Part shown: positions 3,320-6,574 of the stretch, piece by piece
How positions within the stretch are numbered: position 1 is the first letter of the stretch
Layout of the letters: each line of letters opens with the position of its first letter
DNA from: a virus
Taxonomy: Duplodnaviria; Heunggongvirae; Uroviricota; Caudoviricetes
Virus record (IMG/VR): IMGVR_UViG_2778261184_000015
Location: 1-6,574 of that record
DNA: 6,574 nt
Reading direction: 5' to 3' (one strand)
Notes under the pieces: generated by a model
The model's input: only the letters and a program-made list of their open reading frames with translations
Told to the model about the DNA's origin: nothing
The model's database searches: none
Made by a program: the position numbers and the translations under genes

Positions 3320-3835
3320 TTAAATTGCGTGAATAGCGTGACGAGGGAAGGGGAGAGTTACTGGTGCAAAGGGGATATCGTCGTCAAAATCCATAGGTGG
3401 TTCGCTGTGATTTCCCTGCTGCTGAGGTTGCTGTCTTTGTTGCTGACCATTATTTCGCTGAGGTGAAGACTGTTCATTGCCTCCTTGCTTGCCACCAAGC
3501 ATTTGCATGGTTCCACCAACGCCCACGATGACTTCGGTAGTGAACCGATCCTGTCCGCTTTGATCCTGCCATTTTCTTGTCCGCAATTTTCCTTCAAGAT
3601 AAACCTCAGAGCCTTTTCGCAGATATTCGCTGGCAATTTCTGCCAGTTTCCCGCTCATTACCACGCGGTGCCACTCCGTCTGCTCCTTTTGCTCTCCAGT
3701 TTGCTTATCACGCCATTGTTCTGACGTAGCAACTGTAAGGTTTGCAAATGCCGTTCCTGATGGTGAATATCTGATTTCTGGATCATGCCCAAGGCGACCA
3801 ATAATGATCACCTTATTTACGCCTCTGCTTGCCAT
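3320..3835 (-). CDS. ssb: Single-stranded DNA-binding protein (SSB) with 15-aa C-terminal extension
   Basis: The N-terminal OB-fold region is near-identical to E. coli SSB as recalled ([10 protein letters not shown]..., [34 protein letters not shown]). It has a short Gly/Gln-rich linker and the acidic tip MDFDDDIPF. Here the reading frame continues past IPF for 15 codons ([15 protein letters not shown]) before TAA at 3320-3322. The ATG immediately follows the annealase stop (TAAATG). Confidence 0.95.
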
Positions 3836-4543
3836 TTATGCCGCCTGTTTTAGCTCGTTAACTCTGATGTTCATTACCTGAACGCATTTAGCCTGCGCCT
3901 CCTCGTTTCCAGCCATTAATTGCCAGTCATGCTGATAACGCTCGATGAGTTTTTTCTTGTCAGTTTCTGTCGCTGCATAATCGCTGAAGTCTTTCAGGAT
4001 TTGTTCGCAGTCAACCGATGGAGATTTCTGGTTGGTATTTTCTGGTGATGGTTTGTTATCTGATGCTGGGATTGCCCAGCCTGGCAGCGATGGAGGGAGC
4101 CAGTAAAATCCTGTTCCATCCTTGAGTTTTGCCCTGTGCCATCCCTGCTTTTTGTCGAGAGATGTTTGTGCGAAACCTTCCTCAAGGTTATACAGATACC
4201 GACCTATTCCCCATTGAACGGCAGCACGCTTCATTGCACCGGAACGACCACCTTTTACTGCTTCTACCTGCGTGTTTTCAGCGGCATCCCATTTGGTTAC
4301 CCATTCGGAATCAATCTTGATTGATATGCCGCATTCAACTCCGCCGTTGTTGGGAATATCGCGGTATTCATTGCGCCATCCTGCTTTGCCGCAAACATCG
4401 TCCAGGCGTTTCATGATTGCCCGGTTCGTGACATAAGCCAGCACCATAGCCCACACTTTGCCATCGCGTGTTTTACCGCTTTGCTGTATTCGCCATTCGA
4501 TATCTTCAGGGCTGAATGGCTCATCGAATTTGTTCAAATCCAT
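3836..4543 (-). CDS. Rad52-family single-strand annealing protein (Sak-like recombinase, 235 aa)
   Basis: The N-terminal pattern F.PE.IEWR.Q..G......WA..LAY...R.....LD.V.G..GW...Y fits the Rad52/Rad22 N-terminal fold pattern as I recall it from human Rad52 and phage Sak. GAGGTG lies 7 nt upstream of the ATG at 4541-4543. It occupies the position of bet/recT. Confidence 0.85.
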   Translation of the reverse strand: MDLNKFDEPFSPEDIEWRIQQSGKTRDGKVWAMVLAYVTNRAIMKRLDDVCGKAGWRNEYRDIPNNGGVECGISIKIDSEWVTKWDAAENTQVEAVKGGRSGAMKRAAVQWGIGRYLYNLEEGFAQTSLDKKQGWHRAKLKDGTGFYWLPPSLPGWAIPASDNKPSPENTNQKSPSVDCEQILKDFSDYAATETDKKKLIERYQHDWQLMAGNEEAQAKCVQVMNIRVNELKQAA

Positions 4544-4551
4544 AATTCACC

Positions 4552-4722
4552 TCAGAATGGACACGGCCCAAGGAAATAACGCTGATTTAATACTTCGACT
4601 CGGGACAAATTAAGGCATACCCGCATTCCTTCGCGGTCACCATTATGGCGAAACCAGAGAGCTTTCTGCGTGTACATGCGCCTCTGTAACTTGCTCTCCT
4701 TCACTGTGGTTGCAAGTGACAT
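4552..4722 (-). CDS. Small ORF (56 aa), not in the supplied track
   Basis: Hand-translated: MSLATTVKESKLQRRMYTQKALWFRHNGDREGMRVCLNLSRVEVLNQRYFLGPCPF. ATG at 4720-4722 with a strong AAGGAG 6 nt upstream. The stop is 8 nt before the annealase ATG. Overlaps the 52-aa ORF in another frame. Confidence 0.45.
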   Translation of the reverse strand: MSLATTVKESKLQRRMYTQKALWFRHNGDREGMRVCLNLSRVEVLNQRYFLGPCPF

Positions 4723-4801
4723 GAATATCTCCTTCGTTACCGATTAAATCTTTCATCTGACGAATGAATTCTTCGTCTGACCAGTTATCTGTAAAACTCA
4801 T
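4643..4801 (-). CDS. Small acidic ORF (52 aa), not in the supplied track
   Basis: Hand-translated: MSFTDNWSDEEFIRQMKDLIGNEGDIHVTCNHSEGEQVTEAHVHAESSLVSP. Its ATG (4799-4801) overlaps the stop of the Kil-like ORF as ATGA with AGGA upstream (translational coupling). Overlaps the 56-aa ORF by 80 nt in a different frame. Confidence 0.35.
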   Translation of the reverse strand: MSFTDNWSDEEFIRQMKDLIGNEGDIHVTCNHSEGEQVTEAHVHAESSLVSP

Positions 4802-4950
4802 TTCCTGCGATACCACGGAAGGTTGATAGCTGATTTCATCGCTTTATTTGCTTCAAGCCACATTTTGGAATCACCAATAAATCTGGCTATTACTGCTTTG
4901 TTCTGTGCAGCACGAAGCATCTGGTGATTGATGGCTATTTCATTGCGCAT
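4798..4950 (-). CDS. Kil-like small protein (50 aa), candidate host cell-division inhibitor
   Basis: Hand-translated: MRNEIAINHQMLRAAQNKAVIARFIGDSKMWLEANKAMKSAINLPWYRRK. GAGG lies 7 nt upstream. It overlaps the 3' end of cIII by 16 nt, as kil does in lambda. The motif IA.FIGD.KM..EA resembles my recollection of lambda Kil. This is unverified. Confidence 0.5.
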   Translation of the reverse strand: MRNEIAINHQMLRAAQNKAVIARFIGDSKMWLEANKAMKSAINLPWYRRK

Positions 4951-5066
4951 AATAAGACCTCAACTCTTTTCCATCCGTCACGTAATTTACGGGTGATTCG
5001 TTCAAGTAAAGATTCATTTAATTGGAAGGCACCCATGCGAGCGCCTCCCGCGATTGCGTAAATCAT
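4935..5066 (-). CDS. cIII: CIII-like protein (43 aa), FtsH inhibitor / CII stabiliser
   Basis: Hand-translated: MIYAIAGGARMGAFQLNESLLERITRKLRDGWKRVEVLLCAMK. From memory, lambda CIII begins MQYAIAGWPVAGCPSESLLERITRKLRDGWKR, so the N-terminus and the ESLLERITRKLRDGWKR core match. The C-terminus is shorter and different. AAGGA lies 8 nt upstream of the ATG at 5064-5066. Confidence 0.8.
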   Translation of the reverse strand: MIYAIAGGARMGAFQLNESLLERITRKLRDGWKRVEVLLCAMK

Positions 5067-5090
5067 GGGTGGTTCCTTATGTTGGTTTTA

Positions 5091-6059
5091 TTAGTAGGTT
5101 ATTTTTGTTGCGAATACTTCGCCTTTTACGATGGCTGTTATGATATTTTTAGCAACATCTTCTGATGCGCCAACCTTGATAAGGTCAGCAAGTATTTTGT
5201 TATTTACTTCTTTCCGGTGAGCTTTATCCTTTGCTCTACGCTCTTCTTCTTCCTTGATTCTTTTTTCTTCTGCTATTCTGGCTTGCTCTTTTGCTTCAGC
5301 CTCGCGCCGGATTCGTTCAGCCTCCTCCTGTGCTTTTCGGCGTTCTGCTTCAATTGCCGCCTGCTTTTCTCTTTCAGCTCGTTCTGCTGCCTCTTTTGCT
5401 TCGCGCTGTGCTCGTTGCTCGGCTTCAATGCGTTCACGCTCTGCACGTTCCGCTGCGGCCTTAGCTTCTGCTTCTCGCCTTGCTGCTGATTCAATTTCGG
5501 CTTTTGCCTTTGCTTCGGCTTCTGCTCTGGCTTTCTCTTCAGCTTCTCTTTTTAAGCGTTCTTCATGCTCTCGCTTTTCCTGCTCCGCTTTGAGTCTTGC
5601 CTCTTCTCTTTGGCGGTCAAATTCGCGATCCATCAAAATAGCTATTTCATGATCAGACTCAATTTGCTTTGCGAGAGCTTCAGCTGCTGCCTTAGCTTCT
5701 TCTTCGGCTTTAATCCGCGCCTGTTCCTCCTCATAATCAGTAAGAGGCTGGCGAGCCTTGGCTTTCAGTTCATCAAGGCGATCGCGCACTGTCTTGCGGT
5801 TGGCATCAATTAGCTTTGGAATTTCCTTCAGTTCAGCAACAAGGTCTTTGCCAAGACCATCGAGATATGTTTTCGTCTGCGCAACTTTATACGCCAGAGA
5901 AGCAATCTCCTTTCTGCCCTTTGCCGTTGTGATATCAGGCACAAAGGACATAACTTCACGTTCAACCTTTTGGAGAATTTCTTCAATCTGGTCGGCAGAC
6001 TGAAATACAGTCATTGCATTTGCTTTTTCAATAACAACTAAATCTGTTACTTCACTCAT
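5091..6059 (-). CDS. Phage coiled-coil protein with long ER/K-rich helical segment (322 aa); family uncertain, possibly DUF1351-like
   Basis: ATG at 6057-6059 with GGAGG upstream. An N-terminal region of about 100 aa and a C-terminal region of about 40 aa flank roughly 175 residues made almost only of E, A, K and R (EAEAKAKAEIESAARREAEAKAAAERAERE...). The family call is from memory only. Confidence 0.85.
   Translation of the reverse strand: MSEVTDLVVIEKANAMTVFQSADQIEEILQKVEREVMSFVPDITTAKGRKEIASLAYKVAQTKTYLDGLGKDLVAELKEIPKLIDANRKTVRDRLDELKAKARQPLTDYEEEQARIKAEEEAKAAAEALAKQIESDHEIAILMDREFDRQREEARLKAEQEKREHEERLKREAEEKARAEAEAKAKAEIESAARREAEAKAAAERAERERIEAEQRAQREAKEAAERAEREKQAAIEAERRKAQEEAERIRREAEAKEQARIAEEKRIKEEEERRAKDKAHRKEVNNKILADLIKVGASEDVAKNIITAIVKGEVFATKITY
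5220..5750 (-). repeat. Low-complexity coding repeat (GAA/GCA/AAG/CGN-rich codons) encoding the ER/K segment
   Basis: The plus strand here is strongly pyrimidine-biased with short reiterated units (gcttc, ctctt, ttctgc). It generates three overlapping spurious ORFs in the six-frame track. Confidence 0.6.
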
Positions 6060-6070
6060 ATATCCTCCGT

Positions 6071-6099
6071 CAAAAAATTGCCCTCACACTGGAGGGCAA
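6071..6099 (-). terminator. Intrinsic terminator (minus-strand) immediately upstream of the 322-aa gene
   Basis: On the minus-strand RNA: 8-bp stem UUGCCCUC / GAGGGCAA with loop CAGUGU, followed by UUUUUU. The RBS and ATG of the 322-aa gene begin within about 10 nt. The plus strand has no downstream T-tract. Confidence 0.55.
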
Positions 6100-6210: not shown

Positions 6211-6241
6211 TATGCCAAAAATAAAGGCCGACTATGCGGCC
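6211..6241 (-). terminator. Intrinsic terminator (minus-strand) abutting the IS1 end
   Basis: Stem GGCCG / CGGCC (6226-6241) with a 6-nt loop, followed on the minus-strand RNA by UUUAUUUUU (6211-6225). The IS1 left end begins 3 bp away. Confidence 0.5.
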
Positions 6242-6298
6242 TTGGTGATGCTGCCAACTTACTGATTTAGTGTATGATGGTGTTTTTGAGGTGCTCCA

Positions 6299-6574
6299 GT
6301 GGCTTCTGTTTCTATCAGCTGTCCTTCCTGCTCCGCTACTGAAGGCGTGGTGCGTAACGGCAAAAGCACTGCCGGACATCAGCGCTATCTCTGCTCTCAC
6401 TGCCGTAAAACATGGCAACTGCAGTTCACTTACACCGCTTCTCAACCCGGTACGCACCAGAAAATCATTGATATGGCCATGAATGGCGTTGGATGCCGGG
6501 CAACTGCCCGCATTATGGGCGTTGGCCTCAACACGGTTTTACGTCACTTAAAAAACTCAGGCCGCAGTCGGTAA
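6299..6574 (+). CDS. insA: IS1 InsA (91 aa), transposition regulator and N-terminal part of the InsAB' transposase
   Basis: The 91-aa product [89 protein letters not shown] matches IS1 InsA with two substitutions relative to the copy I recall (D to E, I to V). The stop is at 6572-6574. Confidence 0.95.
6548..6556 (+). other. IS1 programmed -1 ribosomal frameshift site (TTAAAAAAC, the A6C slippery motif)
   Basis: The motif sits in the insA frame as L-K-N near the insA 3' end, where the IS1 frameshift that produces InsAB' is known to occur. Confidence 0.7.

Follow-up and report, generated by a model that had tools for sequence, protein, structure and literature searches.

We found that positions 4798 to 5066 of the analysed DNA (a stretch of 6,574 nt, referred to here as the window) very probably hold the cIII-kil gene pair of a lambdoid prophage in the Sf6/HK97/HK022 mosaic group, as part of its leftward early (pL-type) operon and with lambda-like functions. 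The pair is already known and is neither new nor unannotated, since it is annotated in phages Sf6, CUS-3, HK544, and mEp043 and in hundreds of Escherichia coli genomes. Both proteins are 100% identical to Sf6 gp32 (CIII) and gp31 (Kil), to their counterparts in CUS-3, HK544, and mEp043, and to WP_000638547.1 and WP_001243355.1. In addition, the CIII protein is 100% identical to a product that PGAP names 'protease FtsH-inhibitory lysogeny factor CIII' in an E. coli prophage (L096), and the Kil protein is 100% identical to an open reading frame (ORF) of HK022. The features of the pair are as follows.

4935-5066 (stop 4935-4937), minus strand: cIII, 43 aa, FtsH-inhibitor family, Pfam PF02061, the same as Sf6 gp32
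4950-5021, minus strand: cIII codons 16-39, LNESLLERITRKLRDGWKRVEVLL, the counterpart of lambda CIII residues 14-37 (amphipathic-helix region)
4798-4950 (stop 4798-4800), minus strand: kil, 50 aa, an HK022/HK97/Sf6-type allele of lambda Kil, Pfam PF06301
4935-4950, minus strand: cIII/kil overlap of 16 nt, in which the kil start ATGCGCAATGAAATAG reads ..(L)CAMK-stop in the cIII frame
4958-4961, minus strand: kil Shine-Dalgarno sequence GAGG, within the cIII codons for V-E-V and 7 nt before the kil ATG
5074-5078, minus strand: cIII Shine-Dalgarno sequence AAGGA, 7 nt before the cIII ATG

The minus-strand ORF list gives the 43-aa cIII product as MIYAIAGGARMGAFQLNESLLERITRKLRDGWKRVEVLLCAMK and the 50-aa kil product as MRNEIAINHQMLRAAQNKAVIARFIGDSKMWLEANKAMKSAINLPWYRRK. 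The 43-aa ORF matched the Pfam family Lambda_CIII (PF02061) at 56 bits (E=4e-15), above the curated cut-off of 25.7, and aligned with lambda CIII (from NC_001416) in BLASTP at E=3e-13. Likewise, the 50-aa ORF matched Lambda_Kil (PF06301) at 72.6 bits (E=1.7e-20; cut-off 27.6), with the full profile (1-31) covered by residues 9-39 of the ORF, and aligned with lambda Kil from the same record at E=3e-9. NCBIfam models matched neither of these proteins nor the small ORFs next to them; the sole match in the window was IS1. An earlier, sequence-only reading of this DNA had described a 43-aa ORF carrying the lambda CIII core, overlapping by 16 nt a 50-aa ORF with a Kil-like FIGD.KM motif, and had proposed alignment to lambda CIII and Kil as the check. 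Our data bear out this description: the core ESLLERITRKLRDGWKR is common, unchanged, to the 43-aa protein and lambda CIII, the overlap corresponds to nucleotides 4935-4950, and both alignments are significant, so that similarity to Kil was found rather than found lacking.

We asked whether the surroundings of the pair match those of a lambdoid leftward operon. The neighbouring features in the window are the following.

4643-4801, minus strand: small ORF of 52 aa from ATG 4801, which overlaps the kil stop (ATGA); the same as Sf6 gp30 and HK97 gp42.1
5091-6059, minus strand: 322-aa charged coiled-coil-like protein of the cIII operon, encoded upstream of cIII; Sf6 gene 33
6078-6099, minus strand: terminator-like hairpin with a T-run, tL2A in the Sf6 annotation
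6224-6243, minus strand: second terminator-like hairpin, abutting the IS1 end
6244-6574, plus strand: IS1 left end, with the inverted repeat GGTGATGCTGCCAACTTACTGA..., insA from 6299, and the NCBIfam IS1 transposase domain

The Sf6 operon has the order N, ral, gene 34, tL2A, gene 33, cIII, kil, with recombination genes following. The window shares with Sf6 gene 33 upstream of the pair and, downstream, the HK97 gp42/42.1-like ORFs, a Rad52-like annealing protein, and a single-stranded DNA-binding protein (SSB). Furthermore, the DNA around the pair is 98.8% identical to Sf6 over 601 bp, including the 16-nt overlap. Small ORFs, not gam as in lambda, come after kil: two overlapping ones occupy 4552-4801 on the minus strand and encode 52 and 56 aa (Sf6 gp30 and gp29; HK97 gp42.1 and gp42). 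Neither matched a Pfam or NCBIfam family, and the RefSeq label 'recombinase' on both is without support. Further downstream (3320-4543, minus strand), a Rad52/Rad22-family annealing protein of 235 aa and a phage SSB of 171 aa replace lambda gam-bet-exo. The 322-aa protein upstream of cIII is rich in Glu, Ala, Lys, and Arg and carries the PGAP labels 'TolA' or 'coiled-coil domain-containing'; it too matched no Pfam or NCBIfam family. The two terminator-like hairpins upstream of gene 33 fit N-dependent expression.

The two genes themselves show no difference from Sf6. The window does differ from Sf6 in having IS1 in place of the sequence upstream of the tL2-like hairpins: Sf6 homology ends at 6243, and IS1 breaks the phage sequence where gene 34, ral, and N come next in Sf6. 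Alignments to E. coli genomes break off near 6240, and coverage of the window by a complete E. coli genome reaches 81% at best. Placement in a leftward early operon with a CII partner follows from synteny with two relatives, Sf6 and the E. coli prophage L096; in L096, genes for a CII-family regulator, a Cro-like protein, and a CI-like repressor adjoin the pair. The window itself ends in IS1 before it reaches such genes. The arrangement supports the lambda-like lysis-lysogeny and division-control cassette that the sequence-only reading had envisaged, with kil overlapping cIII as in lambda and P22, and with N, ral, CI-like, and CII-family genes nearby in relatives.

With IS1 upstream, at the place expected for the remainder of the pL operon, it is uncertain whether this copy is expressed. 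The pair could be intact but silent here, a relic in which IS1 at 6244 cuts it off from pL and N or marks a deletion of the immunity region. This reading concerns the expression of this copy and not the identity of the genes, and it is compatible with the main explanation. In favour of this reading, Sf6 homology is lost precisely where the IS1 inverted repeat begins, at a point upstream of both terminator-like hairpins, and insA reads in the orientation opposite to the cIII-kil operon; a search of the minus strand between IS1 and cIII found no sigma-70-like promoter, and an exact search of species-representative genomes and viral contigs did not find the IS1/phage junction. However, the window stops within IS1, so that its far side is out of view, N-modified polymerase can read through terminators and insertions, and both ORFs have the consensus sequence with no disabling change. 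On balance we regard a silent relic as unlikely, if worth bearing in mind, and retain the reading of the segment as the cIII-kil pair of a pL-type operon.

We found that the 50-aa Kil shares several features with lambda Kil (47 aa) and HK629 Kil (37 aa), namely the Pfam family, the FIGD.KM turn, a predicted helix-turn-helix hairpin, and an overlap with the end of cIII. The FIGDSKM of the 50-aa ORF aligns with FIGDEKM of lambda Kil. Single-sequence AlphaFold2 predicted a helix at residues 2-25, a turn at G26-D27, and a helix at residues 28-42 (mean pLDDT 86.3). This predicted fold matches that modelled for lambda Kil, which has a helix at 4-18, G19-D20, and a helix at 21-38, with the core required for activity (Naha et al. 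2025, PMC11762379). Identity to lambda Kil is 47%, and the window protein, unlike lambda Kil, has a 7-residue N-terminal extension. Lambda Kil tolerates loss of either its N-terminal 5 or its C-terminal 11 residues, each alone (Naha et al. 2025, PMC11762379). The C-termini differ as well: the window protein ends in PWYRRK, in contrast to the RSK- or RSSK-containing tails of lambda and HK629 Kil. An RSK/RSSK motif has been reported for nearly all Kil homologs (Naha et al. 2025, PMC11762379). Published work on the activity of the two proteins made use of lambda and, for Kil, also of HK629. The ..LPWYRRK ending is a basic cluster and not RSK; RSK is a reported regularity and not a definition of the family.

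Because the lambda Kil alignment begins only at residue 10 of the ORF, and the Pfam match at residue 9, we considered whether the 50-aa ORF could be a chance reading frame, or whether the true product could be a 40-aa form starting at the internal Met11. The Pfam E value of 1.7e-20 argues against a chance frame. The ATG at 4950 is preceded, at a spacing of 7 nt, by GAGG, while inspection of the sequence context found no Shine-Dalgarno sequence ahead of the internal ATG at 4920. Moreover, the 50-aa frame, including MRNEIAINH, is kept in all 78 of 78 full-length related copies, the Kil of L094 has a comparable N-terminal extension, and the predicted first helix begins at residue 2. Both the chance ORF and the internal start were rejected on the Pfam score, the placement of the Shine-Dalgarno sequence, and the conservation of the 50-aa frame, and we judge them very improbable.

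The start of kil lies inside the 3' end of cIII not only in the window (16 nt) but also in lambda (32 nt), P22 (20 nt), L091 (8 nt), and L094 (16 nt). Given the 16-nt overlap, and with the ribosome-binding site of kil placed in the last cIII codons, cIII and kil would be co-transcribed within the leftward early operon, and their translation may be coupled. The protein database also contains in-frame CIII-Kil fusions (P0044, P0063, and P0099; 83-91 aa, with both Pfam domains), which presumably arise by frameshifts in the overlap, whether real or sequencing errors.

Like lambda CIII (54 aa), the window CIII lies in a pL operon and is overlapped by kil. The region of lambda CIII at residues 14-37, an amphipathic helix, is reported to be essential and sufficient for function, and the substitutions S17A, R24A, L26A, R27A, and R32A are each reported to abolish it (Kornitzer et al. 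1991, as cited in Kobiler et al. 2007, PMC1838920). We found that residues 16-39 of the 43-aa CIII contain this whole region, with 18 of 24 residues identical to lambda. All five alanine-sensitive residues are kept: S19, R26, L28, R29, and R34 correspond to lambda S17, R24, L26, R27, and R32. The last six residues of the region are unlike lambda (VEVLL vs LIDIL). The core is amphipathic by calculation, with an Eisenberg hydrophobic moment of 0.55 at 100 degrees compared to a shuffle mean of 0.25; 1.6% of shuffles reach 0.55. At the DNA level, the 40 nt from 5010 to 4971 are 100% identical to lambda. Elsewhere in the family, variants of the 43-aa CIII (P0010-P0012, P0015, P0021, and P0022) carry substitutions at positions where lambda alanine mutants are cIII-, for example R26S (P0015, on 120 contigs), R29H/S, and R34T/G/I. 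It is possible that these are loss-of-function alleles circulating in prophages.

The sequence-only reading had described the C-terminus of the 43-aa CIII as truncated and divergent. Divergence stands, since the protein is shorter than the 54 aa of lambda CIII and ends differently (RVEVLLCAMK vs RLIDILNQPGVPKNGSNTYGYPD). Truncation does not, as our data point to a standard family allele with no truncation event. We compared the locus bin by bin with P22, lambda, and HK022 DNA and found a three-part mosaic, spanning window positions 4935-5110 on the minus strand.

Leader and N-terminal codons, minus strand: part 1, 85-90% P22-like
Core, 5010-4971, minus strand: part 2, 100% lambda
kil ATG onward, minus strand: part 3, 95-100% HK022

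In the first 15 residues of CIII and in the leader RNA, the window resembles P22 and not lambda, and the cIII leader and N-terminal coding DNA are 85-90% identical to P22 C3, whose end is likewise overlapped by the next gene. P22 differs from the window in that its C3 has 52 aa and ends in HDYCAC, and its Kil belongs to another family (DUF5444, 62 aa). HK022 CIII, recognised as a second CIII class (Kobiler et al. 2007, PMC1838920), resembles the window protein in being short (44 aa), in ending with LCAMK, and in being followed by an identical 50-aa kil. The two CIII proteins are otherwise only 40% identical, and the window core is of the lambda type and not the HK022 type. The tail of the 43-aa CIII is therefore short because cIII is joined to an HK022-type kil, whose first codons hold a stop in the cIII frame.

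We next consider whether this relation between tail and downstream gene holds across the family. Our sample of CIII diversity comprised a family-wide protein search and 11 contigs. Comparison of the contigs with lambda and P22 indicated that each type of CIII tail goes with a particular kil allele downstream.

Tail ..LCAMK (CIII of 43-44 aa): followed by the 50-aa HK022-type Kil, overlap 16 nt
Lambda tail (CIII of 54 aa): followed by the 47-aa lambda Kil, overlap 32 nt
Tail ..PCNG (CIII of 48 aa): followed by a 37-aa Kil, overlap 8 nt
Tail ..EDVCRSV (CIII of 42 aa): followed by a 48-aa Kil, overlap 16 nt
Tail ..HDYCAC (CIII of 52 aa): followed by the P22-type Kil (DUF5444), overlap 20 nt

As tail type tracks the downstream gene, the short CIII tail is a normal recombinational module and not damage. 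The family-wide search also found that all combinations of N- and C-terminal CIII modules are present in databases, including the lambda N-terminus with VEVLLCAMK (P0061 and P0037) and the Sf6 N-terminus with the lambda tail (P0048 and P0035). The existence of every combination points to a role of the identical core as a recombination joint. A further reading would make the 43-aa CIII the inactive, truncated leftover of a protein 52-54 aa long, which we hold to be extremely improbable. In its favour, lambda CIII has 11 more residues, and the nine residues at the end of the window protein are unlike those of lambda. However, what is absent is only the counterpart of lambda residues 38-54, outside the essential and sufficient region, that 24-residue region and the five alanine-sensitive residues are kept whole, and the recognised HK022 class has the same ending in a family whose lengths run from about 40 to 54 aa with many forms of 40-48 aa. 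The pseudogene or truncation reading was accordingly rejected, the essential region being intact and the same allele being carried by the viable temperate phages Sf6, CUS-3, HK544, and mEp043.

The mRNA of lambda cIII is described as adopting either of two structures that exclude each other and control its translation (Altuvia et al. 1989, as cited in PMC4908349). This switch is catalogued as Rfam RF01804 (Lambda_thermo; gathering score 50). The model recovered lambda, the positive control, at 88.5 bits, but at E<=1 it matched neither the window nor the P22 and HK022 loci; no other Rfam family was matched at E<=1 anywhere in the window. We asked whether the window leader could nevertheless fold into alternative structures, and one such element is predicted at the start of cIII.

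5024-5076, minus strand: predicted alternative-structure RNA element, hairpin B versus helix A

Hairpin B (5049-5024, within codons 6-15) is predicted to leave the Shine-Dalgarno sequence and AUG free. Helix A, in which 5076-5064 would pair with 5037-5024, is predicted to occlude both; in it, GGAA (of the Shine-Dalgarno sequence) and CACCCAUG would pair with CAUGGGUG and UUCC. Hairpin B and helix A share one 3' arm and are predicted to be mutually exclusive. The predicted minimum free energy structure is B at 30 and 37 °C and A at 45 °C. We examined the pairing, derived from the window sequence, across 13 distinct alleles (the window, P22, and 11 contigs). Hairpin B was 95.8% paired, with three compensatory pairs (AU/CG, GC/AU, and CG/UA), compared to at most 58% in slid controls, and helix A was 87.2% paired, with four pairs changed on both sides, compared to at most 54%; these alleles are few and related, and the compensatory changes trace to about three lineages. 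The compensatory changes may keep the helices paired while altering the N-terminal amino acids. These predictions raise the possibility, which we put forward tentatively and somewhat short of probable, that the Sf6/P22-type cIII leader is a second sequence class of the lambda cIII RNA switch, uncaptured by RF01804; older work on P22 or HK022 cIII may already describe it. We treat the predicted switch as a lead and not as a result.

The cIII-kil pair is widespread. We found its 269-bp interval, with presence defined as coverage of at least 80%, in 502 of 5426 complete E. coli genomes (about a tenth). PGAP names the E. coli products 'host cell division inhibitory peptide Kil' and 'protease FtsH-inhibitory lysogeny factor CIII', and identity of the products to the window proteins was confirmed in one such genome (L096). 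The 601 bp around the pair are 98.8-99.2% identical to CUS-3, phiv205-1, IME10, Sf6, and Sf101, in which Kil and CIII are annotated. At least 30 GenBank phage records encode an identical CIII, as do at least 80 IMG/VR contigs; the 80 matches listed for a four-allele CIII alignment query were all identical to the window protein. Among those contigs that cover kil, 78 of 78 carry the full-length 50-aa HK022-type gene, and two further contigs end inside kil. Both genes are called in public annotation, in RefSeq phage records and by PGAP. In the HK022 RefSeq record, cIII and kil are unannotated, and we located both by ORF listing and alignment. HK022 CIII was not recovered by tblastn with the 43-aa CIII as query, because the two are only 40% identical.

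Lambda-like function is the most likely role of both proteins, and we infer their biochemical activities from work on lambda. In lambda, CIII oligomers competitively inhibit FtsH and protect CII, which tips the decision towards lysogeny (PMC1838920). By analogy, the amphipathic helix of the 43-aa CIII would competitively inhibit the membrane protease FtsH, which would stabilise the phage activator CII, along with host sigma-32, and so favour lysogeny. Kil exerts a ZipA-dependent block of FtsZ-ring assembly in lytic growth (PMC3961180; PMC11762379). The 50-aa Kil, as a hairpin peptide, would likewise disrupt FtsZ-ring assembly in a ZipA-dependent manner and block host division during lytic development.

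For annotation, the segment is a standard lambdoid pair for the control of lysogeny and cell division, and the labels cIII and kil suffice. The CIII tail is a by-product of the downstream kil allele and not an independent feature of the protein; as the tail is set by the kil allele to which cIII is fused, its length is not to be taken as truncation. If the leader reading is true, the constraint on the conserved N-terminal residues of CIII ('of unknown function') would act on the RNA and not on the protein. Furthermore, the only known phage RNA switch that is 'off at high temperature' would then reach the much commoner Sf6/P22-type cIII.
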